From positions 17,829 through 81,828 of the forward strand of contig JALXCV010000023.1 of the NCBI GenBank assembly GCA_026990765.1: a stretch of DNA of 64,000 bases. The letters are read 5' to 3'. Both the position numbers and the translations under genes were made by a program. Source of the stretch: Hyphomicrobiales bacterium (GTDB lineage: Bacteria > Pseudomonadota > Alphaproteobacteria > Rhizobiales > Aestuariivirgaceae). This document shows positions 1,941 through 52,466 of this stretch, piece by piece. How positions within the stretch are numbered: the stretch's first letter is position 1; each line of letters opens with the position of its first letter. The notes beneath the pieces were generated by a model. The model had not been told where the DNA came from, did no database searches, and worked only from the letters and a program-made list of their open reading frames with translations.

Positions 1941-2347
1941 GATCAACATGTGAGCGGGTTGACAATGGTTTTTTATACAGGTCATTATTACGCAACGGTA
2001 AATTTACTGGATGCTGACAGGCACAGCTGACAGGCCAAGCCTGATATTACAGACTTGGTCAGATATTTTTACCTGTGGCAGGCAAAAAAATGAAAACCGG
2101 AGGGAATATGCCAATCAACCGTGTAACAGGCAAGATGTATGGCTTTTCAAAAGCGGTGTGCATTTGGCGTGCGAAAAAACTGTGGTGACCTTCTTGGGTA
2201 AAGGCTCACAGATACAAACGGATTCAACTGAAATGAAAATTGTCAGCATGAATCACACGCTTACAAAAAGCTTAATTATCAGATGCTTAGGAATGATACA
2301 TGATTGACATGGCCTAAGCTGCATAAAGTGCATGATTGGAGAAAAAT

Positions 2348-7816: not shown

Positions 7817-8465
7817 GCTTTTGTCCGGGGTAATCGGCAAGCTGTTGTTTATGGCTAAGGGCAAAGTTCAACAAAGAATTTGCGCCACTCAAATGAAGCT
7901 TGCGTGAAATGTTCTGCCGGTGAGTCTGGATGGTTCTGATGCTAAGGCGCATTTCATCTGCAATCATATGGCTGGTCCAGGCATCGGCAATCCTTGATAA
8001 AACGGAAAGCTCGCTGGTTGTGAGTTGATCAAGACATAATGAGGGATTGATATACAGGTCGTGTTTGGAAAAATCCAGGTCTATGGTTGAACTGGTAAAA
8101 AAATCATCTGATGTGGACTTCATGGCTTCAATCAGATCGCAGCCGGTGTCTTCCTTGGCTATGAAGGCTGCAGCACCGTATTGCCGGGCTTTTTTCACAA
8201 AACCATAACTTGAATGCATGGACAAAATGATCACTCTGGTATCGGCAAGACTGGAATTTGCCCATCTGCATATTTCATAACCATCCATGATTTCCATGGA
8301 TATATCGGTAATGATTATGTCAGGCTTGTGCAGACTGGCCAGGTCTATGCAGTCTCTGCCATTATTTGCCTGGGCAATAATGTGAAATCCGGGTTTTTCT
8401 TCAATAATCTGGTGCAGCCCGGTAAGAAAGATTGGATGGTCATCAGCAAGTAACACTGTTTTCAT
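7806..8465 (-). CDS. Response regulator, NarL/LuxR (REC + GerE HTH) family
   Basis: Start MKTVLLADDHP at ATG 8465, which overlaps the kinase stop by 4 nt (ATGA). Acceptor region PDIIITDISM. C-terminal LuxR-type HTH LTTSELSVLSRIA..SIRTIQTHRQNISRKL. The 3' end overlaps the RTX-1 3' end by 11 nt (convergent genes). Confidence 0.85.
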   Translation of the reverse strand: MKTVLLADDHPIFLTGLHQIIEEKPGFHIIAQANNGRDCIDLASLHKPDIIITDISMEIMDGYEICRWANSSLADTRVIILSMHSSYGFVKKARQYGAAAFIAKEDTGCDLIEAMKSTSDDFFTSSTIDLDFSKHDLYINPSLCLDQLTTSELSVLSRIADAWTSHMIADEMRLSIRTIQTHRQNISRKLHLSGANSLLNFALSHKQQLADYPGQKPKR

Positions 8466-10324: not shown

Positions 10325-10545
10325 AGGCGATGCAAGGTCTATAAATAATGAAAAATAATTACTCAGTGCAGATTTGTTAAGGTTTGGATTTAAGTACTGT
10401 GACGCCCCAAATTTGAGTGTTTGGTTGAGGGTTTGGCGCTGAGTAATCATTACAACTAAAGATATTAGCAAAATAATTCTTTAGATTCAACAGGTTCTGA
10501 TTTTCTAAGTAGGTTATCGTATTTTCATAACCTCCAGTAAGGTCT

Positions 10546-15715: not shown

Positions 15716-18700
15716 ATGTCCATATCCTTCAGTGCAACTTTTGATCTTTCCACGATTAATGGCTCAAACGGTTTTCGGCTTGATGGTATTGATTCTTATG
15801 ATGAGAGTGGTGTGTCGGTCAGTGGGGCAGGGGATGTTAATGGCGACGGTATTGATGATATCATCATCGGCTCACTTGCTAATTCGGGCGGAAATACTCG
15901 CGCGGGTGAGACATATGTGGTGTTTGGCACCAGTTCCGGTTTTTCAGCCAGCTTTGATCTTTCCACACTAAACGGTTCAAACGGTTTCCGGCTTGATGGT
16001 ATTGATGCTGAAGATAGAAGTGGCAGATCGGTAAGTGGAGCCGGTGATCTCAATGGTGATGGCATTGACGATATTATTATAGGCGCACCCCAAGCCGATC
16101 CGGGTGGAGATTCACGTGCGGGTGAGACATATGTGGTGTTTGGCACCAGTTCCGGTTTTTCGGCCAGCCTTGATCTTTCCACACTGAACGGTTCAAACGG
16201 TTTCCGGCTTGACGGCATTGATGTTATTGACTTTAGCGGTCTCTCGGTCAGTGGAGCCGGAGATGTTAATGGTGATGGTATTGATGATGCAATCATTGGC
16301 GCTTATGGGGGCAAGCAGGGCGATAATTTCAGAGCAGGCGAAACTTATGTTTTATTTGGCACCAGTACCGGCTTTTCGGCCAGCCTTGATCTTTCCACGC
16401 TAAATGGCTCCAACGGCTTCAAGCTCAATGGCATTGATGCTGAGGATCGTAGCGGCTGGTCAGTCAGCGGGGCCGGGGATGTTAATGGCGATGGTGTTGA
16501 TGATATAATTATCGGCGCTTACCTGGCAGATCAGACAGGAGACACTAACGCAGGTGAGACTTATGTTGTATTTGGCTCCAGTTCGGGTTTTTCTGCCAGT
16601 TTTGAGCTTTCCTCGATTAATGGAACAAACGGCTTTCGCCTCGATGGTATTGATGCTGAAGACCAAAGTGGCAGGGCGGTTAGCGGGGCCGGAGATGTTA
16701 ATGGCGATGGCATTGACGATATAATTATCGGCGCACGTGAAGCTGATCCAGGCGGGGAATCAAATGCAGGCGAGACGTATGTTGTATTTGGCTCCAGTAC
16801 CGGATTCTCTACAAGCCTTGATCTTTCTACACTTAACGGCACAAATGGTTTTCGGCTCAATGGCATAGCAGCCGGAGATATTAGCGGCACATCAGTCAGT
16901 AATGCTGGAGACGTCAATGGCGATGGCATTGATGATATTATTATTGGAGCTCACGATGCTGATCCAGGTGGGGATTCAAGCGCAGGTGCAACCTATGTTG
17001 TATTTGGCTCCAGTTCGGGTTTTTCTGCCAGCTTTGACCTGACTGGCCTTAACGGTTCAAACGGCTTCCGGCTTGATGGTATTGATGTTGATGACAGGAG
17101 CGGCTGGTCAGTCAGCGCAGCCGGGGATGTTAATGGCGATGGTGTTGACGATATAATAATCGGCACTGATGCGGGTGATCCGGACGGGCATTACAACGCA
17201 GGTGAAACATATGTGGTGTTTGGCAATGCTCCGCCGGTGTTTACCAGTTCAGACACGGCTATGGTCGATGAGGGCACAACAACGGTAATGACCGTCATTG
17301 CCAATGATTCCAGTCCAGGTGGTACTCTGGGCTATTCAATTAGCGGAGGTGATGATCAGGCGCTGTTTGCCATTGATGCGGGGACAGGTGAATTGAGCTT
17401 TCTTGATTCACCTGATTATGATAACCCCGGTGATGCCGGTGCCAACAATATATATGAAGTTGAGATAACTGCCACTGATGGTGTGGGTGGCAGTGATACG
17501 CAGATGATCTCGGTGACTGTTGATGAGGTCAATCTGAACCCGACCATGACCTCTCCTGCTACGGCCAGTGTGGATGAAAACACCACGGCGGTTATGACAG
17601 TGACGGCGAGTGATCCTGATGCTGGTGATATACCGGTGTTCTCGATCAGTGGCGGGGCAGATCAGGCAATGTTTGGCATTGATACAAATAGCGGTGCGTT
17701 GAGCTTCCTTGCAGCGCCGGATTTTGAGAATCCCGGTGATGCCGGGGCCAATAATGTCTATGAGGTTGAGGTTACAGCCAGTGATGGCAATGGCGGCAGT
17801 GATGCTCAATTGATCTCGGTTACGGTTGATAATGTTTCCGGCAATTTCATTGGAACGCCGGATATGGATGTTTTTAATGGTTCGGTGGAAGAAGATATGG
17901 TCACTTATGGTGGCTCATCAGGGGTGACTGTTCGACTATGGAATGGTACCGGAGAACGCGGTGATGCTGAGGGTGATACATACACGATGGTAGAAAGCGT
18001 CACAGGTACTGATTTCAGCGATATTCTGATTGGAACCTTTGGTGAAGCCAATATACTGAATGGTCAAGCCGGAGACGATTTTCTGTTCGGGTTGACCGGG
18101 GATGATGTAATATCTGGCGGTTTGGGTGATGATTTTCTGGTAGGCGGTGCCGGAGCTGACAATTTGGATGGTGGCGCTGGTTCCGACACAGTATCTTATA
18201 TGAACTCACAGAGTGTTTTTGTCAGACTATGGAATGGTACCGCATCTGATGGTGATGCTCTGGCAAGTATTGAGAATGTTATCGGCTCATCTCACGATGA
18301 TGCGATTATCGGTTCCAACATGGTGGATAATATTATCGAAGGTGGTGGAGGAGCTGACTATATAAATGGTCTTGGAGGTGATGATACGGTTTCATATCAG
18401 GGGTCGAGTAATGGCGTCGTGGTCAGATTGTGGAATGGTACCGGTTCGAGTGGTGATGCCGAAGGTGATGTTCTGGTAGATATCGAAAATGTTACTGGCT
18501 CAAATCACAATGATGCGATTATTGGTTCCAATATGGTAGATAATTTCATCGAAGGTGGTGGCGGGGCTGATTATATAAACGGTCTTGGCGGCAACAATGC
18601 TGCTTCCTATAAACATTCTGAAACCGGAGTTACGGTGCGTCTGTGGAACGGCACCGGCACGGGCGGTGATGCAGAAGGTGATACGCTGGTCAATATTGTC

Positions 18701-19039
18701 AATGTCAGGGGTTCAGAATTTGGCGATACACTGCTTGGCAGTTTTGGCACTGACAACATCCTGTTTGGCGGTGGTGGCGGTGACCATCTGTTCGGGCTTT
18801 CCGGCAATGATACCTTTATGTTTAGCGACAATTTCGGCAATGACGTAATCCACGATTTCGCCGATGGCAGCGAGTTCATGGACATGACTGAATCAAGCCT
18901 GAGTGCGGCTGATTTGCGGATTGAGGTTGTTGGTGCTGATACCATTGTTCATTTCGACCAGGTGGATGCGACAATTACCGACACGATTACCATAGAAGGT
19001 GTGGCAGCTGGCATTGATGCGGGTGACTTTATCTTTTAG
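15716..19039 (+). CDS. RTX-3: exoprotein with integrin-alpha-like 7x FG-GAP head, two cadherin-like domains, RTX arrays and the shared C-terminal module
   Basis: Seven units of about 70 aa: LSTLNGSNGFRLDGID..D.SG.SVSGAGDVNGDGIDDIIIGA......AGETYVVFG. Two cadherin-like repeats (VDEGTTTVMTV..., VDENTTAVMTV...). RTX nonapeptides. Ends ...GIDAGDFIF. Confidence 0.9.
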   Translation: MSISFSATFDLSTINGSNGFRLDGIDSYDESGVSVSGAGDVNGDGIDDIIIGSLANSGGNTRAGETYVVFGTSSGFSASFDLSTLNGSNGFRLDGIDAEDRSGRSVSGAGDLNGDGIDDIIIGAPQADPGGDSRAGETYVVFGTSSGFSASLDLSTLNGSNGFRLDGIDVIDFSGLSVSGAGDVNGDGIDDAIIGAYGGKQGDNFRAGETYVLFGTSTGFSASLDLSTLNGSNGFKLNGIDAEDRSGWSVSGAGDVNGDGVDDIIIGAYLADQTGDTNAGETYVVFGSSSGFSASFELSSINGTNGFRLDGIDAEDQSGRAVSGAGDVNGDGIDDIIIGAREADPGGESNAGETYVVFGSSTGFSTSLDLSTLNGTNGFRLNGIAAGDISGTSVSNAGDVNGDGIDDIIIGAHDADPGGDSSAGATYVVFGSSSGFSASFDLTGLNGSNGFRLDGIDVDDRSGWSVSAAGDVNGDGVDDIIIGTDAGDPDGHYNAGETYVVFGNAPPVFTSSDTAMVDEGTTTVMTVIANDSSPGGTLGYSISGGDDQALFAIDAGTGELSFLDSPDYDNPGDAGANNIYEVEITATDGVGGSDTQMISVTVDEVNLNPTMTSPATASVDENTTAVMTVTASDPDAGDIPVFSISGGADQAMFGIDTNSGALSFLAAPDFENPGDAGANNVYEVEVTASDGNGGSDAQLISVTVDNVSGNFIGTPDMDVFNGSVEEDMVTYGGSSGVTVRLWNGTGERGDAEGDTYTMVESVTGTDFSDILIGTFGEANILNGQAGDDFLFGLTGDDVISGGLGDDFLVGGAGADNLDGGAGSDTVSYMNSQSVFVRLWNGTASDGDALASIENVIGSSHDDAIIGSNMVDNIIEGGGGADYINGLGGDDTVSYQGSSNGVVVRLWNGTGSSGDAEGDVLVDIENVTGSNHNDAIIGSNMVDNFIEGGGGADYINGLGGNNAASYKHSETGVTVRLWNGTGTGGDAEGDTLVNIVNVRGSEFGDTLLGSFGTDNILFGGGGGDHLFGLSGNDTFMFSDNFGNDVIHDFADGSEFMDMTESSLSAADLRIEVVGADTIVHFDQVDATITDTITIEGVAAGIDAGDFIF
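18509..19039 (+). repeat. 3' block of RTX-3, colinear with the 3' block of RTX-2
   Basis: Partner of 14826-15356. Same length, no indels, about 92 percent identical by hand count. Confidence 0.85.
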
Positions 19040-19124: not shown

Positions 19125-19913
19125 TTATTTCGGGGAATCAGGCAGTAGTTGTTTGACTGATCGGCGATAAGGGCTGCTAACCGGGATTTTCCTATTATCA
19201 CTGGTTACAGCCAACATGGTCCGGTTGTAATATTCTATGGAATGTAATGCGTCTTTGGCAATCCAGTGGGAGCGGTGGATCTGGATGCCGGGATAATTGG
19301 CAAGTTCTTCCATTGCCTGGGAGAATTTGAGATGCAGCATCTGGCTTCCCTTGCTGGTGGTTACCTCAACATAATGATCGTTCATGGAAAGAGAGATCAG
19401 TTTGTTTCCCAGATGTTCGGGCAGGCGTTGCATAAATCTTGCAGAATTATTGGCGATATCGTCCTGGCTGTCTGCTTCAGGCAGGTTATAGGGCAACATG
19501 AAGTTGAGGTAGGCAATAATGCTGGTGAAAACCAGAACGGTCAGCCACAGGAAGAAATAATGATCGAAACCGTGGACCCGGTCCCGGAATGAATAATCAA
19601 CGATCAGAAAAACTCCCAGACCGGGAAATGAAACCACAGATGATCCAGCCAGCAGTCTGACCAGACGTGGAAGCTGTGCCAGGCGCGGGTGCATCAGTAC
19701 GTAAAGAATTGTCACATGGGCAAATAATCCGCAGCCACCTATCAATGCCAACCAGAAAGCAAATCTTTTGCCTGCTGACATTGTCTGGTAGGTGTTGAAG
19801 GGGCCGATAAAGGTGGACAGTAATACTGCAGCCATCAGTATCACCAATAATCTTGGCCATTCAATATGATTAAAAGCCTGCTTCATAGGGGTTATAGGTA
19901 GTAGCTCAATCAT
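19125..19913 (-). CDS. Membrane-anchored LytTR DNA-binding domain protein (4 TM helices + LytTR, no receiver domain)
   Basis: 262 aa. Four hydrophobic helices (WPRLLVILMAAVLL.., RFAFWLALIGGCGLF.., LVRLLAGSSVVSF.., YFFLWLTVLVFTSII..). LytTR-like C-terminus LISLSMNDHYVEVTTSKGSQMLHLKFSQAMEEL...IQIHRSHWIAKDAL. An alternative start is ATG 19886. Confidence 0.7.
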   Translation of the reverse strand: MIELLPITPMKQAFNHIEWPRLLVILMAAVLLSTFIGPFNTYQTMSAGKRFAFWLALIGGCGLFAHVTILYVLMHPRLAQLPRLVRLLAGSSVVSFPGLGVFLIVDYSFRDRVHGFDHYFFLWLTVLVFTSIIAYLNFMLPYNLPEADSQDDIANNSARFMQRLPEHLGNKLISLSMNDHYVEVTTSKGSQMLHLKFSQAMEELANYPGIQIHRSHWIAKDALHSIEYYNRTMLAVTSDNRKIPVSSPYRRSVKQLLPDSPK

Positions 19914-35721: not shown

Positions 35722-37572
35722 ATGCCGCAATATCGCTCCAAAACTTCCACCCATGGCCGTAATATGGCAGGTGCACGTGCCTTGTGGCGCGCTACCGGGG
35801 TCAAGAACAATGATTTTGGCAAGCCGATAATTGCGGTGGTCAACTCCTTTACCCAGTTTGTACCCGGCCATGTGCATTTGAAAGACCTTGGGCAGATGGT
35901 GGCACGCGAGATCGAAGCTGCTGGCGCTATTGCCAAGGAATTTAACACTATTGCCATAGATGACGGTATCGCCATGGGGCATGACGGCATGCTTTATTCA
36001 CTGCCAAGCCGCGAGATTATTGCAGATTCAGTAGAATATATGGTCAATGCCCATTGCGCCGATGCGATGGTGTGCATTTCCAATTGTGACAAGATAACTC
36101 CCGGCATGATGATGGCAGCGATGCGGCTGAATATCCCTTCAGTTTTCGTGTCAGGCGGGCCGATGGAAGCAGGGCGCGATGACAGTATCAATCACGGGCT
36201 TGATCTGGTTGATGCGATTATTATGGGGACTGATCCGCAAGTATCTGATGAAACGGTTGAACTGGTTGAAGAGAGCGCCTGTCCGACTTGCGGTTCGTGT
36301 TCTGGCATGTTCACAGCCAATTCCATGAACTGTCTGGCCGAGGCTTTGGGCTTTGCCTTGCCCGGCAATGGCACCATTGTTGCAACCCATGCTGATCGCA
36401 AGGGGCTGTTCCTTGACGCCGCACGCAAGGTGGTGGAGCTGTGTGAGCGTTATTACAAGGGTGATGACAGTTCGGTACTGCCGCGCAATCTGGCCAGTTT
36501 TGAAGCATTTGAAAATGCCATGACGCTGGATATTGCCATGGGTGGTTCAACCAATACGGTATTGCATCTTTTGGCCATTGCCCGGGAAGGCGGGATTGAT
36601 TTTAGCATGGCTGATATTGACCGGCTGTCAAAACAGGTGCCAAATCTGTGCAAGCTGGCCCCGTCAACCCAGCAATATCACATGGAAGACTGCCACCGCG
36701 CTGGTGGGATCATGGGGATTTTGGCCGAGTTGAACCGGGCCGGGCTGGTGCATGGTGAGTGTACAACGGTGCATGCGCCAAGCATGGGTGAAGCGATCGA
36801 GCGCCATGACATCATGAATTCACCGGATGCAGAAATTAGCAAAATGTATAGTGCGGCACCTGGCGGGGTTCATTCGATCAAGGCATTTTCGCAGGACAAA
36901 CGCTATCGTGAACTCGACAGGGACCGTGAAAGCGGCTGTATCCGTGACAAGGCCCATGCCTATAGTCAGGATGGCGGGCTGGCGGTGCTATATGGCAATA
37001 TTGCGGTAGATGGCTGTATCGTCAAGACAGCTGGCGTTGATGAGGATAATCTGACCTTTTCCGGTCCGGCAGTGATTTTCGAAAGTCAGGATGCAGCAGT
37101 TAAAGCCATTACCGGCAATAAGGTGAAATCCGGTGATGTAGTGCTTATCCGCTATGAGGGACCGCGCGGCGGGCCGGGCATGCAGGAAATGCTGTATCCG
37201 ACCTCATATCTCAAATCCATGGGGCTGGGCACGCAATGCGCCCTGATTACTGATGGCCGTTTCTCTGGTGGCACCTCTGGCCTGTCAATCGGCCACATAT
37301 CACCAGAAGCGGCATCAGGCGGCAATATCGGTCTGGTTGAGAATGGCGATATAATCGAAATCGATATTCCGGGCAGGATTATCCGGGCAAATGTCAGCGA
37401 TGAAGAATTTGACGCACGCCGCACAGCGATGAATGAACGCGGAGATGAAGCCTGGAAACCGGCAGAAAAACGCGACCGCATTGTATCGCGCTCACTTGAA
37501 GCTTACGGCCTGATGGCTACATCGGCAGACAAGGGAGCGGTACGGGATTTGACGGGGCTGAAAAGGGTGTAG
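35722..37572 (+). CDS. ilvD: Dihydroxy-acid dehydratase
   Basis: 616 aa from ATG 35722 ([26 protein letters not shown]); the ORF is open from 35680. Conserved [30 protein letters not shown] and [14 protein letters not shown] motifs. Confidence 0.95.
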
Positions 37573-37985
37573 ATGATTTGTGATCGTAAGCATGATGGGC
37601 TGGACAAAGCCTGTTTCAGCTTGATAACAGCATTGTTCATTGGCTTGAGTTGCATAACTATTCATGACGGGAGCAAAACTCCATTTTTGTCTATGGTTTA
37701 GGCAACTTAGACAACCAAAACATATTACTCATGACAAATTGACTTTGCAGATATGAACAGTAAATCTGATTGAAAGAATAATATCATAATTGGCATCTCC
37801 TGCTACAAATAACAAAGTGGTATTGCTTGTAATTATAGCTTTTATTGTGCTATGATGAATATGTTATTATATGTCAATATGTGGGATTGCTGCCACATTA
37901 TGAAATGTTTTGACCGGGGAAAGTCAAAAGTGAAGGTAAGCTTGTGTCTTGTCCCCCGGGAAAGGGGTTTGGGGAGGAGTTTACC

Positions 37986-40900
37986 ATGGCTGATATCGGT
38001 TTTCGTAGTCCAGTTGACAGTTTGATCTCCAATTTCAAGAATGATATAAGCAGCGGTTATGCCGGTAACGGGTGGTGGCGAAATTTCAGTCGGGATTTTT
38101 CAGACGGCACTGGTATATATAATGTACATTATGGATACGACTTAAACTGGACCAAGAATGGTGGTGTAAATGATGATGTAGGTGCTCCTGTATATGCCAC
38201 CTATGCCGGAACAGTGGTTCGTTCACAAGGTGGGCTAAGTTGGAATAAAGGAGGAAACACCGGCTATGGAAATGTTATTGCTATAAAGCATGATATGAGC
38301 AGGTTTTATGATTGGGACGATTATTTAGATGAAAATGGCGATCAACGGTTTGTTTATTCTGAATATGAACATATGTATGATTTTGATACAAATACTAACA
38401 CCGTTGACTATCGAGCCTATTCCGAAGATTTTTTTGAAAACATTTTAACAGAAAAAACCAACGAAGATGGCGATACATACACAGTTGGCCCCGAAGACTT
38501 AGCAGGTGAAAATCACTCTATCTCAGTTGATGACACAATTGGTGCCTTCTTTGGTACCAGATATGGTCATTCTCAACAAATTGGTAATATAGCAAGTTCC
38601 GGTGCAAGTGATGGCGCACACCTTCACTTTCAAATGTGGGTTGGAGGTAAAAATGATACAAAAAAGGATTTTAACGAAGGAGAAGAAGAAGGCTCAATTG
38701 ATGCATTTGTCTTCATTCGGGAACATTCCTTTTCCGATTATGAAAGTTTGGCTTACAGGGATCTATTGCCAGCATTCTACGGGGTAGTTCCACCAGAAAA
38801 CGAGCCTACCAAACTTGCCCATACATTAGATATTGATAACACCACTGATAATAGAAATGGTTCATTGAATTATTATGGCAGGTTGTATAATGACGAAGAT
38901 GTAGATAATTATACTATTTCACTGGATGCCGGGAATTACTACTTTACACTTGTTGAAGAATCTTTGTTTCGTTATGAGAACGCAGCCAAGGGCTTGCAGT
39001 ATGGATTTTCCAATCTGGATATTTTCTATCTGGATAGTTTCAGAAGTAACCATACTCAGATTGCGTTTTTTAAATTAGATGAAAGAACAGACGTAAACTT
39101 TTCGATTGGGTCAACTATCGATCCCTCCTTTTTTTCAACAGAAGACTATAGATTTTCATTTAGAGAATCGCCGTTTCAATTAGAAAATATAACTCTCCCT
39201 AATGAAAATACACAAAACCACCCACCAGCACTTGAATTCGGCGGCGGTGGTAACCAAACCCCCATTATACCGTCACTACCTTCCCAACCACCAGCTTCAG
39301 GTGATGTTTATGTCAGAAGCATCAATCGCGAAGAGCATTTCTCTGTTGGTGAGGAAGACTCATTCAGTGCCGGGATTGGATCAGGTAATAGCTGGGTGTA
39401 CAGGTTGACGACACTTTATGCCGGTGACCTTGATGTTTCAGCCACACTGTGGGGCGGTGCCGGGGCTACGGTTTCGCTTGCTCGTGATAATAACCGGGAT
39501 GGCTACATACAATCTGGTGAGATCATTCAGCAGATTAGTCTTGCCTCTGTTTCATCCGGGACTTTGGGAATAAGTGAATCACTTTCCGGTTCTGCCGAGC
39601 GCTACTTGATCGTGACATCAACGGGTAATGGTGGTGCTTCAAGTGAAATTCGGATATCTGCGAAGCTCAATGATCCTGGAACCGGAAATGGCACACCCGC
39701 GGTCAGTAATCCACCGCTCCCCTTGCCTCAAGATGAATCTTCGCAATCCAGCCCGTCTTCAATAAGTGATGATGGTTACTCCAGATTTGCCCGCATTGGC
39801 ATAAGCGGTGATCTTGATTATTTCCGTACCAACCTGCTTGAAGGTGGTCGTTCTTATTCATTTACTGCAATGCCATCAGGTTCGCAGGCTCTTTCAGATT
39901 TGCGGATGTTTATATACGATAGCGCCGGAAATTATGTAAGTTCGGCTTCGGCAACTCCAGGCAATGTTGCTCATTTCAATGTGGATATCCCAACAGGCAA
40001 TTCGCAGCCTTATTATACAATAGAAATTCTAGGTGCAAATGGGGCCACCGGTGGTTATGCAATCAGCTATCTGGATACAGGTGCCATTGTGCCCCCCGAT
40101 GATCATCCAGATGGTTCTTTTACACCTATTGCCATTGGAGGTACTGACACAGCATATATAGGATCTGCTGATGATGTGGATAATTTCAGTTTCACAACAG
40201 CTTATGGTCATCAATATACAGTAACGATAACACCTGTAGCTGGTACACTTGCCCCACTGACATATGGACGAATTGCAGTTTCTGATACAGACGGAGATAT
40301 GGTTGTTACCCGCTCTGTTGAATCGGCATCGACATTTGCCGTTCAGTTCGTTGCTTATGAAGCTGGTGATTTCAAACTGGCGCTGGATGCTTTGCGACAG
40401 GCAACCGGGCAGGCAAATATATCGATAACAGATAATGGTCAGGTAGTGTATCCGGCACCAACTGTTGCTGGAGCAACCTTCGAAGGTAACCTGACAAGCC
40501 AGTCATCATGGACCCCAATCAGTTGGAGTTATGATAACTTTACCCCCAATGGTGATGTTTATGACCTGTTCGTCTCGATGGGTAGTGAAGCAACCATTTA
40601 TGTCAAGGAAAATGGCAATGAGTATGGGGGGGTTGATGTTCAGGTCTTTACTCAGGGCGGAGAGATTATAACACCTGAATATCACGGTAATTATCCCGGT
40701 GACGGGCATGAGTATACTTTTTCTTCCAGCCCTGATCTTGGAGTCTTTTACAAAGTGCTTGTTTCCTACTCAGGCAATGGAAACAATACTGATTTTTCTT
40801 ATGGTATTGCATCGGTTCAAACTGATGACAAACCTGAAATTCCCAATGAAATTTTTACATTGGATGTGAATGGAATAGCTACTGGCCAGATAGAGAATTA

Positions 40901-42692
40901 TGATAATGGCGATGTTTTCCAATATACAGGTCCGCGAGGTTCGGTTCGGTTTGTTGTGACCGAAGGAGATGTTGCCCCTGGTTCATCATTCCCTACTATT
41001 CATGATGCCTCAATCCGAATCTTTGATGATGAAGGAAATGTTTATGGTGTTGAGTATATTGACAACTTTGCAGTTGAAGACATGCGTGTTTATATTCCAG
41101 AAGGGCCTTCCCACATTTACTTTGAAATTGGGGAGCGTTCATCAGAAGGTTATTATCAACTATCAGCCTTTACTGTGACCGATGACTTTGCTGGTGAAAG
41201 CTCAACAACTGGTGAGCTTTTGATTGGCGGAACTGTTTCAGGTCAACTGGAAACATATGGTGACGTAGATGCCTTTTCTGCCCGTTTTGTTGGCGGTGCC
41301 AGCTATGAAATAAACCGGCCAAATATTACAAACGCAGCCCACGGCACCTACTTGGCAATTATCGATCCTGAAACAGGTGAGGAAATAATCCGAACAGGTT
41401 CCAGTACCTTAAATTTCCAGACACCTCTGACAGGAAATGATAGCTATATGGATGTTCTTGTTGTCATAGGGCATAACAGATCAGTTGTACCCAATGAAAC
41501 ATCTGACTACACGGGTGCTTACATACTTGAGCTAAATGATACTACTCCGGATGATCATGGAAATGATGTTGCCGGATCAACCGCAATCGCACTCGGTGAA
41601 ACAGTAAATGCCTTTGCTGAAAAAATTAATGATATTGATGCCTTTACGGTTTCTGATCTGACCATCGGGGATGTATATCAAATCAATCTGGGAGTTGATG
41701 AAAGTGCAACTCTGCAAATGGTTTCAACTGCAGTCGATATACTTGACATTGATGGAATACCAATCTCAACAGTCGCAAGTGATGATAATGGTAATCTTGT
41801 GTATAATTTTGTTGCTCAAGAAACATCACAGACTTTCCTTATTCGCCCATTTGGCGGTCAGCGATTAGGTGGTGTTGAGTTTTCGGTAGATGCCGTAAAT
41901 ATTGCTCCAACCCTGGTTACAGGTTCTGCAATTGTTTCTACTGGTGAATCTGTTGACCTATCCGTGCTAATGGCCTTTTCTGATGAAAATGGAGATAGTA
42001 TTTCTCAGGTTGAGTTTAAAAACCTCTCGCCAAATCTTGGTAAACTGGTGGGGCCTGATAATCTACCTGTTGACGAGCTTAGTGTTACTACTAATGAGCA
42101 TGTTTCATTCCTGGCAGATCAGGAAAATGATGAAGCTCTGATTGTTGTTAGGGTCTATGATGGCACTGACTGGAGTGACTGGTGTGCTTTACCAGTCTCA
42201 GTCATTCGTGATGATATAGTCGATTTGCAAGGAGATGATCAGCCAAACAGTATCTTTGGGACATCTGGTGCAGACAATATATTTGGTTATCAGGGAAATG
42301 ACAGCCTTTATGGTGGTGCTGGTAATGATATCCTGGATGGCGGTAGCGGTATCAATAATATATATGGTGGACCGGGGTCTGATACCTTCAATTTCAGCTT
42401 TATGGATACAACCACCATTATTTCTGATTTTGAGACAGGCGTTGATTCTTTTGACTTCAGTGGTGTTAGGTCGCAAGCAGAAGCAGTATTTGTTGTGATG
42501 GGTGATGAGGCCTATGGATTGACAAATGAAATTAGTAGTGAATATCAATACACGAATCTAACATTGGATGTAGATCAAAACGGAAGTGATATGGAAGTTA
42601 CTACATATTATTCAAATACTTCTGTTTCTGAAGAATCTCTTATCACTTTTCAGGATGTCTCAATGTCAAATTTCGATTTTCATGATTTCTAG
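37986..42692 (+). CDS. Giant exoprotein: N-terminal M23 (LytM/lysostaphin-type) peptidase + multiple PPC-like domains + C-terminal RTX repeats
   Basis: ATG 37986 follows GGAGGAG. M23 motifs HYGYD (HxxxD), PVYATYAGTVV, GYGNVIAIKH and GAHLHFQM (HxH). At least 5-7 PPC-type motifs (EDVDNYTISL, GDLDYFRTNL, DDVDNFSFT, GDVDAFSARF, NDIDAFTVSDL). C-terminal GTSGADNIFGYQGNDSLYGGAGNDILDGGSG. Confidence 0.85.
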   Translation: MADIGFRSPVDSLISNFKNDISSGYAGNGWWRNFSRDFSDGTGIYNVHYGYDLNWTKNGGVNDDVGAPVYATYAGTVVRSQGGLSWNKGGNTGYGNVIAIKHDMSRFYDWDDYLDENGDQRFVYSEYEHMYDFDTNTNTVDYRAYSEDFFENILTEKTNEDGDTYTVGPEDLAGENHSISVDDTIGAFFGTRYGHSQQIGNIASSGASDGAHLHFQMWVGGKNDTKKDFNEGEEEGSIDAFVFIREHSFSDYESLAYRDLLPAFYGVVPPENEPTKLAHTLDIDNTTDNRNGSLNYYGRLYNDEDVDNYTISLDAGNYYFTLVEESLFRYENAAKGLQYGFSNLDIFYLDSFRSNHTQIAFFKLDERTDVNFSIGSTIDPSFFSTEDYRFSFRESPFQLENITLPNENTQNHPPALEFGGGGNQTPIIPSLPSQPPASGDVYVRSINREEHFSVGEEDSFSAGIGSGNSWVYRLTTLYAGDLDVSATLWGGAGATVSLARDNNRDGYIQSGEIIQQISLASVSSGTLGISESLSGSAERYLIVTSTGNGGASSEIRISAKLNDPGTGNGTPAVSNPPLPLPQDESSQSSPSSISDDGYSRFARIGISGDLDYFRTNLLEGGRSYSFTAMPSGSQALSDLRMFIYDSAGNYVSSASATPGNVAHFNVDIPTGNSQPYYTIEILGANGATGGYAISYLDTGAIVPPDDHPDGSFTPIAIGGTDTAYIGSADDVDNFSFTTAYGHQYTVTITPVAGTLAPLTYGRIAVSDTDGDMVVTRSVESASTFAVQFVAYEAGDFKLALDALRQATGQANISITDNGQVVYPAPTVAGATFEGNLTSQSSWTPISWSYDNFTPNGDVYDLFVSMGSEATIYVKENGNEYGGVDVQVFTQGGEIITPEYHGNYPGDGHEYTFSSSPDLGVFYKVLVSYSGNGNNTDFSYGIASVQTDDKPEIPNEIFTLDVNGIATGQIENYDNGDVFQYTGPRGSVRFVVTEGDVAPGSSFPTIHDASIRIFDDEGNVYGVEYIDNFAVEDMRVYIPEGPSHIYFEIGERSSEGYYQLSAFTVTDDFAGESSTTGELLIGGTVSGQLETYGDVDAFSARFVGGASYEINRPNITNAAHGTYLAIIDPETGEEIIRTGSSTLNFQTPLTGNDSYMDVLVVIGHNRSVVPNETSDYTGAYILELNDTTPDDHGNDVAGSTAIALGETVNAFAEKINDIDAFTVSDLTIGDVYQINLGVDESATLQMVSTAVDILDIDGIPISTVASDDNGNLVYNFVAQETSQTFLIRPFGGQRLGGVEFSVDAVNIAPTLVTGSAIVSTGESVDLSVLMAFSDENGDSISQVEFKNLSPNLGKLVGPDNLPVDELSVTTNEHVSFLADQENDEALIVVRVYDGTDWSDWCALPVSVIRDDIVDLQGDDQPNSIFGTSGADNIFGYQGNDSLYGGAGNDILDGGSGINNIYGGPGSDTFNFSFMDTTTIISDFETGVDSFDFSGVRSQAEAVFVVMGDEAYGLTNEISSEYQYTNLTLDVDQNGSDMEVTTYYSNTSVSEESLITFQDVSMSNFDFHDF

Positions 42693-43244
42693 TTTATTGG
42701 TATTAGACTTTGATGAGGTATTATTCTTTTGGTAGTCCCACGTGAAGTATTCACAACCCATTGATCTGACAAAATAAAACGGTATTTTGAAGTATAGGCT
42801 TTTGCAAGGAAAGTACAGCTTGGCTGGCATTTCCTTGCAATTTGCATTTGCTGATTTTATGTGATTCACTGCTCCAAAGAGCGAATTGGAGGGTGATATG
42901 AAGCCGAAGGAACCTGTATACACTGGCCAGAACGACATGTTTCGTTCGCGACTGGATCAGATTATCGATATGGGCCACGAAAAGGTGGTTTTGGTCGGGG
43001 CGATTGACTGGCAGTTTTTGTCAGAAAAATGTGGTGAGAACTACGACCCCAAACCCGGACATCCAGCGCTTTCGACGCGGCTGATGGCGGGGCTGCATAT
43101 TCTCAAATTTGCCGACAATCTGTCGGACGAAGAACTCTGCGCGCGTTGGGTGGAGAACCCGTATTACCAGTATTTTTGTGGCGAAGAGTTTTTCTGCCAT
43201 GAACTGCCATTTGATCGCTCATCCCTGACCCGCTGGCGCCAGCG

Positions 43245-43282
43245 CCCCTCTCGGTGATTGCTGCTCATTCACCTGCCGGGCA
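43245..43282 (+). repeat. 38-nt structured insert, copy 1 (CCCCTCTC - hairpin - TGCCGGGCA)
   Basis: CCCCTCTC GGTGATTGCTGCTCATTCACC TGCCGGGCA. Sits at the first frame break of the transposase and contains GGTGA/TCACC stem arms. Confidence 0.5.
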
Positions 43283-43774
43283 ACGATGGGCTAGGACCAG
43301 ATTGAAGCATTATTGGCCGAGAGCATGAACGTAGCCCTCAAGCTGGGGGCAGCAAAGCCGTCTGACTTCACCAAGGTGATTGTTGACACCACGGTTGCCG
43401 AAAAGAACATCACCTTCCCGACAGATGCCAAGCTTTGCCACAAGGCGCGCGAACGGCTGGTGAAAATGGCTAAAAAACACGACATCAAGCTGCGCCAAAC
43501 GTACAAGCGGGTCGGCAAATATGCCCTGATCATGTATGGGCGCTATGCCCATGCAAAGCAGTACAAGCGGGCCAGACGCCAGTTGAGGAGGCTCAAAACC
43601 TGGCTTGGCCGGACCATTCGTGACATTGGCCGCCAGATCAAAGGCAACGGCATGCTGGAAGACATCTTCCGGGCCGAATTGTGGAAGGCCGAACGGGTGC
43701 GCACCCAGAAACCACGTGATGACATCCCCAAAAAGATTTACTCTTTGCACGCGCCCGAGGTTGAGTGCATTCAC

Positions 43775-43810
43775 TGCCCGGCAAGCGATACAAAGTATCG
43801 CTGAGAGGGG
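43775..43810 (-). repeat. 36-nt structured insert, copy 2, inverted relative to copy 1
   Basis: The reverse complement reads CCCCTCTC AGCGATACTTTGTATCGCT TGCCGGGCA. Sits at the second frame break and contains a perfect 8-bp stem AGCGATAC/GTATCGCT. Confidence 0.5.
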
Positions 43811-44385
43811 GGAAGGCAAAGCCCACAAGCCTTATGAGTTCGGTGTCAAGGCTTCCATCGCCACCACGCTCAACCGTTGCAAGGGCGGCCAGTTCGCTGT
43901 TCATGCCAAAGCCCTGCCGGGAAACCCATATGACGGACACACGCTTGAAACCATCCTGCCACAGATCGAGGCTTTAACCGGCGGGGTTCTCAAGCGGGTT
44001 CTGGCAGATGCCGGATACAGAGGCCACAATGCCCGCCTTGAGCACAAGTTCAAGGTCTTTACCACTGGCCAGAAGCGGAGGGTAACGCCAGCCATCAAAC
44101 GAAAGATGAAACGGCGCGCCGCCGTCGAGCCGGTCATTGGCCATATCAAAAACGAACACAGAATGACCAAAAACTACCTCGCCCACAAGCACGGCGATGC
44201 CATCAACCCGATCCTGGCCGCCGCAGGATACAACTTCCACCTGCTCCTCAAATGGATCAGGTCTCTTTGGGCTGTTTTGCTGTGGGCTGCCTGGTCGTCA
44301 ATGTCGCTGAAATCTGCGTAAATCACGAGGGACTTGATAATAGATGCATCGCAGGATAAATTCCTATATCGGGTCTGGGCTACGT

Positions 44386-44901
44386 TCAGTCGCGTACCAG
44401 CTTTTTGATCGCTGCCACATCAAGGATTTCTGACTGGGCGTCTATAAGGAAATGTCGGGTTGGATTTGTGGTTTTCAGGATTATCCAGGGGGCGTTGACG
44501 CTTATTACTCCAGAAGAGCGCATTACTGTCATTTGGCCGGAATGATGGCTGCTGGAGGTGATATCTGCCGGGTTCAAGGTCAGGGGAGTTTTATGCAGTG
44601 AAGTTGTTATCTGCAAAATATCACCATTGCGGCTTATGGAAATTACATAGATATGGCGATAGTAAATTATGCCTGCAACTATCGACATGGCCATTATCAG
44701 CAAGCTGCCAGAAAATATCAAACGCTGGTTGAAGGGCTTTAACTGCCCGCCATCGGCAGGTGAAATCCCCCAGCTGTTGAAAATGGTAAAGGCGGCATAG
44801 ACAATGGCGATGCTGGCGAGCATCAGGACCCAAGATGCCAGCTTGACTTTCAGGGCCTGTTTCTTGTTGAGAACTATCAGTTTTCCGGGTCTGGCTGCCA
44901 T
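44386..44901 (-). CDS. Hypothetical membrane protein (two TM helices + C-terminal soluble domain)
   Basis: ORF 44386..44943; the start is either ATG 44901 or TTG 44943. Hydrophobic segments WVLMLASIAIVYAAFTIF and LIFSGSLLIMAMSIVAGIIYY. Same strand as, and directly downstream of, ycjF. No family recognised. Confidence 0.4.
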   Translation of the reverse strand: MAARPGKLIVLNKKQALKVKLASWVLMLASIAIVYAAFTIFNSWGISPADGGQLKPFNQRLIFSGSLLIMAMSIVAGIIYYRHIYVISISRNGDILQITTSLHKTPLTLNPADITSSSHHSGQMTVMRSSGVISVNAPWIILKTTNPTRHFLIDAQSEILDVAAIKKLVRD

Positions 44902-44993
44902 GGCAGGGGATTTTATAACATATCGGCTGTGGTTTGAAGCCAAAATGGCAACAATGCTGATTGCACGATTTGTTATGTGGTGCGGGCCTGACT

Positions 44994-49959: not shown

Positions 49960-51384
49960 TCAAAAGCCTTTGGTCATTGTAATATTGGCACCCCAGCTTG
50001 AATAATCAGAAAATGGCGAGTTTGACATGTTCCTGACATAGGTAATATCCAGTCGCGGGGCAACCCCCATAAAATCCCAGTCTCGTTTGGTGAAGGAAGC
50101 AAGCAGGGAGATTTTTGTATCTTTTTGCGGGGCGCTCAGCAGGGGATAATCTCCATCATGCAGCTTGCGATAGATTTTACCTTCTGCATACAGGTTTAAC
50201 CCGAAAATCGAGGTTTCGCGGTAAAGGGCGGCACCGACATAACCCATCCAGAAATCAAGATGCTTGCGTTTGGTGATAGTGCGCTGGGCACCGCTCAGCA
50301 GATAGACGGCACTGTCTGCTCCAAAGCCCTGCGATAAGCGAATGTCAGATGTGGTCGTGTAACCATTGCGGAATTTTGAGGTTTTGAAACGTGATTGCAA
50401 ATGTCGTGTTCTGATCTGCAATGAAGTGGATTTGTCGAGGCGCTGGGTTATGGCAAGTTCGGGGCCGATTTCATGGATAAATTCATCAGCGCCCGACCAG
50501 CGCTGATTGGCGGATACTCCAACAGAGATTTTCCCCTGTTTGTGGGTACGTACCACTGACAGTGACTGGGAAATCATGGTGTCGTCAAAATCGCGACCTT
50601 TATACTGGGTAAGATTTATCCCGGCAGCGGCAATCACTGACAGATCCTTGCCCGGGTGCAGGGTGTAGGATGCGTTGGCACCGGCGCGAATCCCGATGCC
50701 GCTTTGTTTTAGTCCATTGCCGGTTATGGTGAATGGCAGACCATTCAGGGTGACCTGGCGGGTGGTGGTGCCGTTGGTGTAGTTGGTACTTGGTGCCATG
50801 GCGACATAGGCGCTGGCCTTGAACGGGCGGCGGGCATCAATGGCATCAAGGAAATTGTCAAACTGTTTGGCCTGATCGGTGGTCGGGGCGGCTTTTGACA
50901 GCAATTGGAGGTGGTGTTTTGCACCATCATCATTTTCTGTCAGAAACAGAGTGTGGGCAAGTTCGGCCCGAACAAGTGTCAGCTTGGGATCATTTGACAG
51001 GGCCTTGCGGAATTTTGATATTGCCAGATCGTAATTCTGGCGCAGTTTGGCAATCAGCCCCTGAAGAAACAGGGTGCGATTTTCAGCATGTTTGCCGGTG
51101 AACGGATTGGCATTCAGTAATTGTTCGGCATCATCAAGTGCATTGGCCCTGATCATTCTCATCAGAATATGCAACCGGGCTTTTTCCGGCAGTTGCGAGA
51201 ATTGCGGGGCTTTTGCTGATTTGCCGGAAGTGAGCGGTGTCTGAACTGTCTGGGCTTTGGCAAAAGAAGGGGAAACAGAGATAATCAGCACAAATAAAAG
51301 TGCTGAGAAAAACAGACAAGGAGCACTTGTGAAAAAGTGCTCCTTACCGGTTATTTTGTTCTGCTCATATTGCCTTGAGATCAC
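49960..51384 (-). CDS. Slam-like outer-membrane protein (TPR region + DUF560 beta-barrel)
   Basis: 474 aa. Signal-like FFSALLFVLIISVSPSFAKA. An N-terminal helical TPR-like region is followed by alternating beta-strand sequence ending in ...GANITMTKGF (terminal Phe, as in OMPs). The GTG start overlaps the stop of the upstream lipoprotein gene by 1 nt. Confidence 0.55.
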   Translation of the reverse strand: MISRQYEQNKITGKEHFFTSAPCLFFSALLFVLIISVSPSFAKAQTVQTPLTSGKSAKAPQFSQLPEKARLHILMRMIRANALDDAEQLLNANPFTGKHAENRTLFLQGLIAKLRQNYDLAISKFRKALSNDPKLTLVRAELAHTLFLTENDDGAKHHLQLLSKAAPTTDQAKQFDNFLDAIDARRPFKASAYVAMAPSTNYTNGTTTRQVTLNGLPFTITGNGLKQSGIGIRAGANASYTLHPGKDLSVIAAAGINLTQYKGRDFDDTMISQSLSVVRTHKQGKISVGVSANQRWSGADEFIHEIGPELAITQRLDKSTSLQIRTRHLQSRFKTSKFRNGYTTTSDIRLSQGFGADSAVYLLSGAQRTITKRKHLDFWMGYVGAALYRETSIFGLNLYAEGKIYRKLHDGDYPLLSAPQKDTKISLLASFTKRDWDFMGVAPRLDITYVRNMSNSPFSDYSSWGANITMTKGF

Positions 51385-52466
51385 TACCTGTTTCCCTGGA
51401 AAACACCGCGCAGTTTAATTGAGGCCCGCCGATTGGTATCATTTGGTGCGGAACCGTCATATGGGGAAACTGCTGCGGAGTGTGAATAAATGGCGCCTGC
51501 GACCTCATCAGCGGCTGGACCATAGAAACCGCCCTTGATTGCTGAAGAGCTGGTCAGGCGCCGGTCGACCGGAGCCTTGACTGTGCCTGAAAAAGTGTTG
51601 TCGGTAATTGTTCCGTCAATTGTGTAATCGGTAAACGGTTTGGCAGTCTCAGCCGGTAAAATGGTGATAAAACCGTCAGGACTGGTGTTTGATGCGGTAA
51701 ATTTGCGCCATGTGGTGTTGCTGACTGTTCCGTTTACGGTTCCATTATTGAAATCTGCGTTGATCTGAACATTGCCAACAACGCGCCAGTCACCATTGGG
51801 ATCATATTCAGAGCCGGCAGTTCCAGCTGTATCAAACGGGTCATCGATTGTTCTTGTTGCGGGTAACCAGTTATCAACAACAGCTGTGCCACCAAATTTG
51901 CCATTATAAGTAGCGTTGCCAGCTGGCAGGGCGGTTGTCGGGGTTGCAGAGCCGCTATAATACATTGCCACGCTCTTGGTGGTGGAAGAAGATGGGGAAT
52001 TGTAGACAGTGTAAGTACCAATTTCACTGTTGGTATATGACCAGACCTGCAGTTCGGTATCGGTGTCGTCGGTGAATGTGTGATATTCCTTGTAGCCTGT
52101 GAAGTTGGCGCTGTTACCCAGATTGTCGGTGGCTACACCTGATATATTGTCGCGAAACAGTTTCATTTCTACCGGATCAGCCCATCCCATGGATGAACCT
52201 GTGCTTACGGCAACGGTTGCTGATTCATTGCCAACACCGGTTCCAGCTCCGGTTATGGTAATCTGGGTCTTGGCTGAACCGGTAATATTGGATTCGCTGT
52301 CATTAAAGACAAAAGCAGCGCCTTCTGAGGAAGCACCAGCACCGCCGCCACCGCCACCTGGATTTATGGCCTGTCCACCACTGGTCAGGTCAATTTTATC
52401 ACTTGATGCACAACCTGACAGGGCGGTGCCTGCCAATAATAACGCAACTACAATACTCGAACGCAT
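51384..52466 (-). CDS. Surface-lipoprotein candidate with TbpB/HpuA-like C-terminal barrel motif
   Basis: 360 aa. Lipobox LLLAGTALSGC followed by a Gly-rich linker (NPGGGGGGAGASS). C-terminal GGFYGPAADEVAGAIYS ... LRGVFQGNR resembles the G.FYG..A.E.aG motif of Slam-dependent lipoproteins. Confidence 0.55.
   Translation of the reverse strand: MRSSIVVALLLAGTALSGCASSDKIDLTSGGQAINPGGGGGGAGASSEGAAFVFNDSESNITGSAKTQITITGAGTGVGNESATVAVSTGSSMGWADPVEMKLFRDNISGVATDNLGNSANFTGYKEYHTFTDDTDTELQVWSYTNSEIGTYTVYNSPSSSTTKSVAMYYSGSATPTTALPAGNATYNGKFGGTAVVDNWLPATRTIDDPFDTAGTAGSEYDPNGDWRVVGNVQINADFNNGTVNGTVSNTTWRKFTASNTSPDGFITILPAETAKPFTDYTIDGTITDNTFSGTVKAPVDRRLTSSSAIKGGFYGPAADEVAGAIYSHSAAVSPYDGSAPNDTNRRASIKLRGVFQGNR

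Follow-up and report, generated by a model that had tools for sequence, protein, structure and literature searches.

A predicted extracellular M23 peptidase with a PPC-type stalk and an RTX tail in a Hyphomicrobiales bacterium

Introduction

Secreted peptidases of family M23, lysostaphin and pseudoalterin among them, count with the best-studied bacteriolytic enzymes and serve as antimicrobial leads. The members of the family named here are either phage-borne or exported along Sec-dependent routes. A 64,000-nt stretch of DNA from a Hyphomicrobiales bacterium of the Aestuariivirgaceae (GenBank assembly GCA_026990765.1, contig JALXCV010000023.1, positions 17,829 to 81,828, forward strand), here called the window, encodes a 1568-residue protein in which an M23 domain stands at the head of a long stalk that ends in RTX repeats. 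The locus raises the question of what such a protein does and how it would reach its substrate. The favored answer, given a probability of roughly 0.55, is an extracellular, calcium-dependent M23 zinc endopeptidase whose most likely way out of the cell is a type I secretion system (T1SS). We infer its secretion route, calcium dependence, substrate, and ecological role, bacteriolysis included.

The gene lies in an uninterrupted plus-strand open reading frame (ORF) at 37944-42692, which holds no stop or frameshift in the ORF list of the window. A preliminary description of this DNA, made from the letters alone, had named the 1568-residue frame at 37986-42692; that frame is intact, has a strong Shine-Dalgarno sequence, and encodes the same protein in three assemblies. 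These are the window contig, an ENA metagenome scaffold, and the Logan assembly of SRR14510437. Because the latter two, as independent gene calls, yield exactly the window protein, an assembly artefact is excluded.

37986..42692, plus strand: complete coding sequence, 1568 residues plus stop (M23 head, nine-unit beta-domain stalk, RTX block, C-terminal tail)
37973..37979, plus strand: ribosome-binding site GGAGGAG, 6 nt upstream of the ATG at 37986, read from the sequence

The short motifs quoted in the preliminary description were all located in the translation. Those of the M23 domain are HYGYD (residues 48-52), PVYATYAGTVV (68-78), GYGNVIAIKH (93-102), and GAHLHFQM (210-217). The two Pro/Ser linkers occupy residues 429-439 and 575-592. 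D-x-D-aromatic motifs, five in all, stand at 303, 608, 729, 1092, and 1215; the GGxGxD block is at about 1425-1465, and the DF..G.D.FDFS tail is present as well. A scan for promoters and terminators around the gene gave nothing convincing above shuffled expectation, and an Rfam scan of the whole window returned no RNA families.

The M23 peptidase head

37986..38660, plus strand: M23 (LytM-type) metallopeptidase domain, residues 1-225; Pfam PF01551
38661..38831, plus strand: conserved post-M23 segment, residues 226-282, with the pattern S-x-D-x4-I-x2-H-S-x-S-D-x-E; specific to the small family

The M23 assignment of the preliminary description is borne out by an hmmscan match above the gathering threshold and by a full set of catalytic and zinc-binding residues. 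With the whole protein as query, Peptidase_M23 (PF01551) matches in two stretches, scoring 30.3 bits where the cut-off is 28.7 (E = 4.9e-07). The score is low because two lineage-specific inserts, at about residues 104-121 (~18 residues) and 131-190 (~60 residues), split the domain. The residue set is complete, with H48-x3-D52, H129 (in YEH), and H212-L-H214. By correspondence to LytM and lysostaphin, we take H48, D52, and H214 to be the zinc ligands and H129 and H212 the catalytic histidines; the LytM counterparts are the ligands H210, D214, and the second His of HxH (H293), and the catalytic H260 and H291.

Two homologs, both from metagenome-assembled genomes (MAGs), carry the same head. MDJ0628340.1 (Rhodobacter sp., annotated as 'M23 family metallopeptidase') has 1726 residues and is colinear from the M23 head to stalk unit I at 50% identity; MEP3890985.1 (Hellea sp., 'hypothetical protein') has 1834 residues and matches from the M23 head to unit H at 31% identity, both values being measured over about 1100 residues. 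In the alignment of these three members, H48, D52, G93-Y-G-N96, E128-H129, and H212-L-H-F-Q-M217 are invariant. When 48 sequences including ordinary M23 proteins are aligned, D52, H129, H212, and H214 remain invariant.

The motifs of the head also line up with the same motifs in solved M23 proteins. The M23 domain alone found nothing at E <= 1e-3 in a word-index homology search. The profile of the three-member family retrieves 652 proteins from a database of 5.8 billion, all of them PF01551 (best E = 3.9e-9), together with 21 solved M23 chains that include phage Gp16, NMB0315, ShyA, LytM, zoocin A, and DipM. An AlphaFold2 model of the head built on the 48-row alignment has a mean predicted local distance difference test (pLDDT) of 64.6, with a core at 80-91 and poorly modeled inserts and tail. 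When this model is compared with the PDB by Foldseek, all 48 matches with E <= 0.001 are entries of the M23/LytM fold, among them ShyA, LytM, lysostaphin, Csd3, EnpA, StM23, and phage-particle entries carrying such a domain. The target-normalized TM-scores reach 0.65-0.72 at best, against the isolated catalytic domains of LytM and StM23.

In the alignment, residues 9-10 ('P-V') fall on the start that M23 proteins usually have, 'P-[LV]...S-x-F-G'. The fold thus begins with its first strand at residue 9, which indicates that the protein has no signal peptide, propeptide, or occluding domain. From its sequence and modeled fold, the head is a divergent M23B-like enzyme that appears catalytically complete, and endopeptidase activity is predicted for it. 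A reading as a non-catalytic LytM factor was ruled out, as all catalytic residues are present and conserved. The segment that follows the domain has invariant S237, D239, I244, H247, S248, S250, D251, and E253 in the three-member alignment, and the model places a helix at 240-246.

The C-terminus and the route of secretion

42216..42380, plus strand: calcium-binding RTX nonapeptide block, residues 1411-1465, about 4-5 repeats
42381..42692, plus strand: serralysin-like post-RTX region with a presumed uncleaved T1SS signal, residues 1466-1568, ending ...SNFDFHDF, plus stop

The preliminary description had likened the end of the protein to that of a type I secretion substrate, and the likeness holds: the protein has RTX repeats, a serralysin-type region after them, and no apparent N-terminal signal peptide. 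Pfam HemolysinCabind matches residues 1424-1457 with E = 3.6e-15, and a regular expression places repeat starts at 1425, 1443, 1452, and 1461. After the repeats comes a 'ISDFETGVDSFDFS' segment and then about 90 residues to the FDFHDF end. Positions 323-438 of the 462-position NCBIfam Zn_serralysin model, the C-terminal third of serralysin, match residues 1424-1529 with E = 3.3e-11; the isolated tail scores 18.1 bits on Pfam Peptidase_M10_C, under the cut-off of 20.7. The N-terminus, MADIGFRSPVDSLISNFKND..., has no hydrophobic segment as judged by eye. T1SS signals carry no diagnostic motif, and an acidic residue followed by hydrophobic residues at the extreme end is typical of protease- and lipase-type substrates. 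The homologs end in an acidic residue and then hydrophobic residues (...DMDALI, ...YDYDLFL).

Five further giant RTX proteins are encoded in the window.

2336-7816, plus strand: giant RTX protein
10959-15356, plus strand: giant RTX protein
15716-19039, plus strand: giant RTX protein
20051-24532, plus strand: giant RTX protein
24700-26901, plus strand: giant RTX protein

Two of the five carry FG-GAP plus cadherin/Big_9 domains, one carries a CAP domain, and two are RTX-only. Their presence implies that the organism runs a T1SS, and it clearly invests in T1SS cargo. At the Hellea sp. locus as well, the homolog adjoins a gene for another RTX protein. The C-terminal ~100 residues of the five window proteins are near-identical (…DFxDGSEFMDM…GIDAGDFIF); duplication or recombination may have spread them as a common secretion module. 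This end is missing from the M23 protein, whose gene has a history separate from those genes. Interspersed among the RTX genes are a 7TMR-DISM histidine kinase with a LuxR-type response regulator (7806-10471, minus strand) and a LytTR regulator (19125-19913, minus strand), which are possible regulators of the RTX gene set.

The stalk

38832..39170, plus strand: unit A, residues 283-395; D-V-D-x-Y motif; no Pfam match
39171..39296, plus strand: linker 1, residues 396-437; Gly run GGGGN and then a Pro/Ser stretch
39297..39680, plus strand: unit B, residues 438-565; calcium-loop-like motif DxNxDGxIxxxE; no Pfam or PPC match
39753..40439, plus strand: units C and D, residues 590-818; PPC-type, hhalign over 92-102 columns
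40440..40829, plus strand: unit E, residues 819-948; most conserved unit of the family; no Pfam or PPC match
40830..41897, plus strand: units F, G, and H, residues 949-1304; PPC-type; the stretch that matches hundreds of multi-PPC proteins by phmmer
41898..42215, plus strand: unit I, residues 1305-1410; Ig-like only weakly, if at all; lacking in the Hellea sp. homolog

Between the head and the RTX block stand nine units of about 110-130 residues each. Comparison of the protein with itself by BLASTP gives no off-diagonal matches, so the units are old rather than recent duplications. In a hand alignment of eight of them, the only common pattern is D-x-D-aromatic and G-x-Y-x-[IL]. In linker 1, P414, G420-G422, and N423 are invariant across the family.

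The preliminary description had read the stalk as an array of pre-peptidase C-terminal (PPC) domains, to be checked by hmmscan. That check was negative: the Pfam model PF04151 has no match in the whole protein at E <= 1, nor in any of nine hand-cut isolated units at E <= 10. A profile of eight units found only chance-level matches among PDB sequences. An exhaustive phmmer search with residues 270-1410 against 1.84 billion representative proteins returned 779 proteins at E <= 0.001, with E down to 1e-50; apart from the three true relatives, these are multi-stretch matches, and the five that were sampled all hold strong PF04151 arrays (E = 1e-12 to 1e-57). A reference profile of five Pfam-verified PPC domains was then aligned by hhalign with an ortholog-based profile of each unit. 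The probability is 96.0% for unit C, 93.6% for D, 91.4% for F, 97.6% for G, and 95.0% for H; it is 38.6% for A, over the 31 columns of its motif region, and below 1% for B, E, and I. Since the Pfam model is too distant to match, the PPC label rests on this profile-profile evidence.

Units C, D, F, G, and H are thus most probably divergent PPC-type domains, homologous to PPC at the profile level and showing a G-D-x-D-x-F/Y ... G-x-Y pattern; the assignment of unit A is uncertain. Four of the five sites cited in the preliminary description therefore stand (C, D, G, and H, at 93-98%), the EDVDNYTISL site of unit A is uncertain (39%), and unit F (91%) is a fifth PPC-type unit beyond the sites it had named. 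The AlphaFold2 model of unit G, built on an eight-row alignment of the internal repeats, has a pLDDT of 54, too poor for fold assignment. Foldseek finds nothing for it at E <= 0.001; the best TM-score, 0.42/0.46, is with the collagenase PPC domain 5sv5 (E = 0.55), and the collagen-binding domains of ColG are listed as well, none of them significant. Unit I reaches only E = 0.049 on Pfam Big_9, below threshold, and its identity with the Big_9/cadherin domains of the FG-GAP RTX proteins in the window was rejected (hhalign 0.7%).

Relatives and mosaic conservation

The family is very small. A word-index search with the full-length query gave only the protein itself plus RTX-only matches; the relatives that it had missed were recovered by an exhaustive HMMER search. 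A scan of 185,579 species-representative genomes matched two loci and no others, those of Rhodobacter sp. and Hellea sp.; the source genome was not among the matches, and JGI metagenomes added one Rhodobacter-type locus. A phage origin was rejected, as IMG/VR holds no relative and the PHROGs matches are only to generic M23-type peptidases or endolysins.

The relatives differ at their ends. The Hellea sp. homolog has no unit I and carries about 12 Pfam RTX stretches after unit H. The Rhodobacter sp. ortholog has a ~270-residue C-terminal module in place of RTX repeats; this module has no Pfam or PDB match, and it is duplicated in tandem in a 1981-residue cluster-mate of the protein. RTX-dependent export is therefore not a constant of the family. 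A partial protein from a Paracoccaceae MAG, MFK7945012.1, bears an unrelated head of ~560 residues on units B-F, which hints at exchangeable heads; that region has no Pfam or PDB sequence match.

Conservation along the protein is uneven. Identity to the Rhodobacter sp. ortholog is 29-31% over the M23 head and unit A, 54-66% over units B-E, and 44-49% over units F-H, with values of 54% for unit B, 60-64% for units C-D, and 65.9% for unit E. The step falls at the invariant GGGGN and Pro-rich stretch of linker 1, which marks the border between a variable head and a conserved scaffold. The three or four relatives may be read as a modular, bacteriocin-like effector family of marine proteobacteria, with B-E as a conserved scaffold for specific targeting or receptor binding and with exchangeable heads (M23 in three members, the 560-residue region in Paracoccaceae) and tails (RTX or the 270-residue module). 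The protein would then be a peptidoglycan-degrading killer delivered by a T1SS and needing no immunity gene, because it would never fold inside its producer. This reading is speculative and considered unlikely; if true, it would describe a type of interbacterial weapon not described so far.

The better conservation of units B-E relative to the head is also what would be expected of a surface-retained giant RTX protein of the LapA or MpIBP type, since a displayed stalk would carry the selected function. Export of such a protein would stall, the M23 head would remain in the periplasm and bind or cut the producer's own peptidoglycan as an anchor, and the stalk and RTX tip would be displayed as an adhesin. 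A T1SS exports the N-terminus last, and the size, repetitive beta-domain stalk, and C-terminal RTX block resemble those of RTX adhesins; the window also encodes other adhesin-like RTX giants, those with FG-GAP and cadherin domains. Against an anchoring role, every catalytic residue is kept in each of the three members that have the M23 head. LytM factors that bind peptidoglycan without cutting it, such as EnvC and NlpD, typically have degenerate sites. Moreover, retention or adhesin modules are not listed among the Pfam or NCBIfam matches, and the unrelated 560-residue region that replaces the M23 head in the Paracoccaceae relative is at odds with a conserved anchor. A retained adhesin is thus improbable.

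Proposed mechanism and substrate

In the favored reading of the protein as an exported endopeptidase, an ATP-binding cassette (ABC) transporter, a membrane-fusion protein, and a TolC-like channel encoded elsewhere would recognize the uncleaved C-terminal region and thread the protein out unfolded, C-terminus first. On contact with extracellular calcium, the RTX block would fold into a beta-roll, and the nine beta-rich units, at least five of them PPC-type, would fold into a long stalk. In secreted proteases, domains of the PPC type bind insoluble substrate or serve as C-terminal extensions that can be removed; the stalk may accordingly bind an insoluble substrate or be trimmed off after export. 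The M23 head would emerge last, with its full catalytic set and no occluding prodomain, and would cut Gly/Ala-rich peptide bonds outside the cell. The most probable substrate is the peptidoglycan of other bacteria or of wall debris, at stems or cross-bridges, for killing or for nutrient scavenging. Peptidoglycan is favored because the neighbors of the head are of the M23B/LytM type and because pseudoalterin offers a marine precedent: Pseudoalteromonas sp. CF6-2 kills Gram-positive bacteria with this secreted M23 protease (PMC6962226).

This mechanism would also account for a feature of the locus. The preliminary description had seen no obvious adjacent immunity gene, and none was found; the neighbors are an insertion sequence (IS) remnant and a 185-residue ORF without a family match. 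Because export would bypass the periplasm and folding would need external calcium, the wall of the producer would never be exposed, which would explain the absence.

Several observations weigh against the favored reading. No gene for a T1SS ABC transporter, membrane-fusion protein, or TolC-like protein is present among the ORFs of at least 150 residues in the window, and T1SS component genes are also absent within 10 kb on either side of the Rhodobacter sp. and Hellea sp. homologs. Unlinked T1SS genes are common, so the missing linkage does not exclude secretion. The RTX block is short, at about 4-5 repeats, and such repeats are missing altogether from the Rhodobacter sp. ortholog. The Pfam score of the head is only 1.6 bits over threshold, and the head is the least conserved part of the family, with 30-31% identity versus 54-66% for units B-E. 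As to the substrate, the peptidoglycan in intact Gram-negative cells is out of reach of a free M23 enzyme, and M23 enzymes such as pseudoalterin also cleave elastin (PMC6273387).

The elastin activity leads to a second kind of extracellular enzyme, one in which the M23 head would cut Gly-rich structural proteins (elastin-, collagen-, or matrix-like, of hosts or marine particles) and the PPC array would bind and swell insoluble protein, as in marine collagenolytic proteases. Pseudoalterin and similar M23 enzymes reportedly attack elastin in addition to peptidoglycan (PMC6273387, PMC6271819). PPC domains are typical of secreted proteases whose substrates are insoluble proteins, as in a collagen-swelling M4 protease (PMC7426729). 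The weak resemblance of the unit G model to the collagenase domain 5sv5, with ColG also listed and neither significant, points the same way, as does the gene that precedes the Hellea sp. homolog, which encodes a 1210-residue RTX protein with metalloprotease matches below cut-off (Peptidase_M10 at 17.5 bits, cut-off 24). Set against this, the sequence and fold neighbors of the head are overwhelmingly M23B/LytM peptidoglycan hydrolases (ShyA, LytM, lysostaphin, EnpA, and phage lysins). LasA and beta-lytic protease are elastin-active M23A enzymes, and neither they nor pseudoalterin are among the matches listed. A matrix protease is considered unlikely.

The gene that follows the Hellea sp. homolog encodes an Rce1/CPBP-like membrane protease. 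Some members of this family have links to bacteriocin immunity; at the other loci this gene arrangement does not recur.

Genomic context and origin of the gene

42886..44321, plus strand: decayed IS5-family (ISRsp18-like) element, with DUF772 at 42886-43257, an ORF fragment at 43313-43804, and DDE_Tnp_1 at 43605-44321

The gene is preceded by ilvD (35722-37572) and followed by the IS remnant, a 185-residue minus-strand ORF, and the minus-strand genes ycjF and ycjX. The 185-residue ORF (44386-44943, minus strand, TTG start), between the IS remnant and ycjF, has no family matches and may or may not be a real gene. Further along, a Slam (surface lipoprotein assembly modifier) gene directly adjoins a gene for a TbpB-like beta-barrel lipoprotein (49960-51384 and 51384-52466, minus strand); the two are a Slam-dependent surface-lipoprotein pair.

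The preliminary description had judged the M23 gene more AT-rich than ilvD, and its G+C content is indeed 42.2% against 52.8%, with 47.7% for the whole window. G+C at third codon positions (GC3) is 0.316 in the M23 gene and 0.552 in ilvD. The value of 0.316 is the lowest in the window (z = -4.7 against a core mean of 0.520, standard deviation 0.044, n = 26 genes). The five other RTX genes are also low in GC3 (0.345-0.426), and the codon-usage distance of the M23 gene to the core genes, 0.128, lies within the range of those five genes, 0.107-0.133. Because of this, the composition is not a specific argument for transfer. The Rhodobacter sp. ortholog has native composition in a genome of 63% G+C.

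The decayed IS5 element reported downstream is likewise present. Its DUF772 and DDE_Tnp_1 domains lie on separate fragments, in at least three ORF pieces, and it is not an active copy. Its DNA is 64-70% identical to IS5/ISRsp18-like elements on alphaproteobacterial plasmids. At 53-56%, its G+C content stands against 42% for the M23 gene, and being G+C-rich the IS must have arrived as a separate event, not as the vehicle of the AT-rich gene. The two other public contigs with the M23 gene end inside the first ~100 bp of the IS, which suggests several IS copies in the genome. Carriage by a composite transposon was rejected, as a single IS copy was found, the 413-bp upstream spacer holds none, and the G+C bias is opposite. 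At 42802-42840 (plus strand), 110 nt past the stop codon, is an imperfect hairpin with 18-nt arms, TTGCAAGGAAAGTACAGC and GCTGGCATTTCCTTGCAA, that are 83% complementary; the hairpin may form a terminator or mark the IS's left end.

The horizontal acquisition proposed in the preliminary description is hence plausible but unproven. In its favor are the lowest GC3 in the window, the patchy taxonomy, and the homolog loci, which are unrelated to the ilvD/ycjX setting and have neighbors that differ between them; the parts of the argument that did not stand are the composition, which is not specific, and the IS, which is a separate event.

The same facts could be taken to describe a decaying or functionless passenger, a recently acquired and poorly expressed foreign gene beside an IS. 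The extreme GC3, the adjoining degraded IS, the very patchy distribution with relatives in unrelated contexts, and promoter and terminator signals no stronger than shuffled expectation all fit such a gene. A 4.7-kb open frame with a strong Shine-Dalgarno sequence, however, would not last long without selection. In addition, three lineages 20 points apart in G+C have all conserved the catalytic residues and long parts of the stalk, and the same sequence occurs in three independent assemblies. A passenger is accordingly highly improbable.

Comparison with known systems

Among known enzymes, the M23B endopeptidases lysostaphin, LytM, and ShyA (MEROPS M23) are the nearest neighbors of the head in sequence and structure, with the same fold and the same HxxxD ... 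H ... HxH arrangement. Like lysostaphin, the window protein joins a catalytic head to targeting modules that are not catalytic. Unlike all three, its head is at the extreme N-terminus, has two inserts, and is without an occluding domain, a propeptide, or a signal peptide. What is attached to it are PPC-type domains and RTX repeats in place of SH3b, LysM, or Csd3-like modules. A 2022 review of M23 architectures mentions neither RTX nor type I secretion (PMC9662197).

Pseudoalterin, LasA, and beta-lytic protease are bacteriolytic and elastinolytic M23 enzymes that Gram-negative bacteria secrete and use against other bacteria, a role that is predicted for the window protein; pseudoalterin is an example of marine predator and prey (PMC6962226). 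They are pre-pro-enzymes of about 20-40 kDa. They differ from the window protein in belonging to subfamily M23A and in having neither a PPC array nor RTX repeats. Pseudoalterin depends on type II secretion (PMC6962226), whereas a T1SS is predicted here.

The C-terminus, with its GGxGxD beta-roll, 'DFxxGxDxxDxS'-type region, and presumed uncleaved signal, resembles that of serralysins and other RTX proteases and lipases. As in serralysins, the catalytic domain lies N-terminal to the RTX block and no Sec signal is present. The differences are that the catalytic domain is M23 and not M10, that about 1100 residues of stalk precede the RTX repeats, and that the adjacent genes for ABC transporter, membrane-fusion protein, and inhibitor were not found in the 64-kb window.

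With multi-PPC proteins (PF04151 arrays, as in vibriolysins and clostridial collagenases), the window protein shares units C, D, F, G, and H, which are homologous at the profile level. In contrast to those proteins, its PPC units miss the Pfam model, are interleaved with units A, B, E, and I, and are attached to an M23 head. A full-text literature search for 'M23' with 'pre-peptidase C-terminal' surfaced only an M4 protease. Each module is known, and automatic annotation already calls the Rhodobacter sp. homolog an M23 peptidase; an M23 head combined with a PPC-type stalk and an RTX tail did not surface in full-text searches of the literature.

Significance

Because the family is extremely rare, the value of the finding lies mainly in enzyme discovery and in the modular evolution of T1SS cargo, and not in a long-standing question. 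The modular pattern of head, scaffold, and tail is the most intriguing loose end. If an M23 head with its full catalytic set is carried on an 1100-residue stalk of PPC type and has an RTX/T1SS tail, M23 enzymes would gain a new route of delivery. The same architecture would explain the missing immunity gene, through export that bypasses the periplasm and folding that is gated by calcium, and it would offer new candidate modules for binding cell walls or particles.

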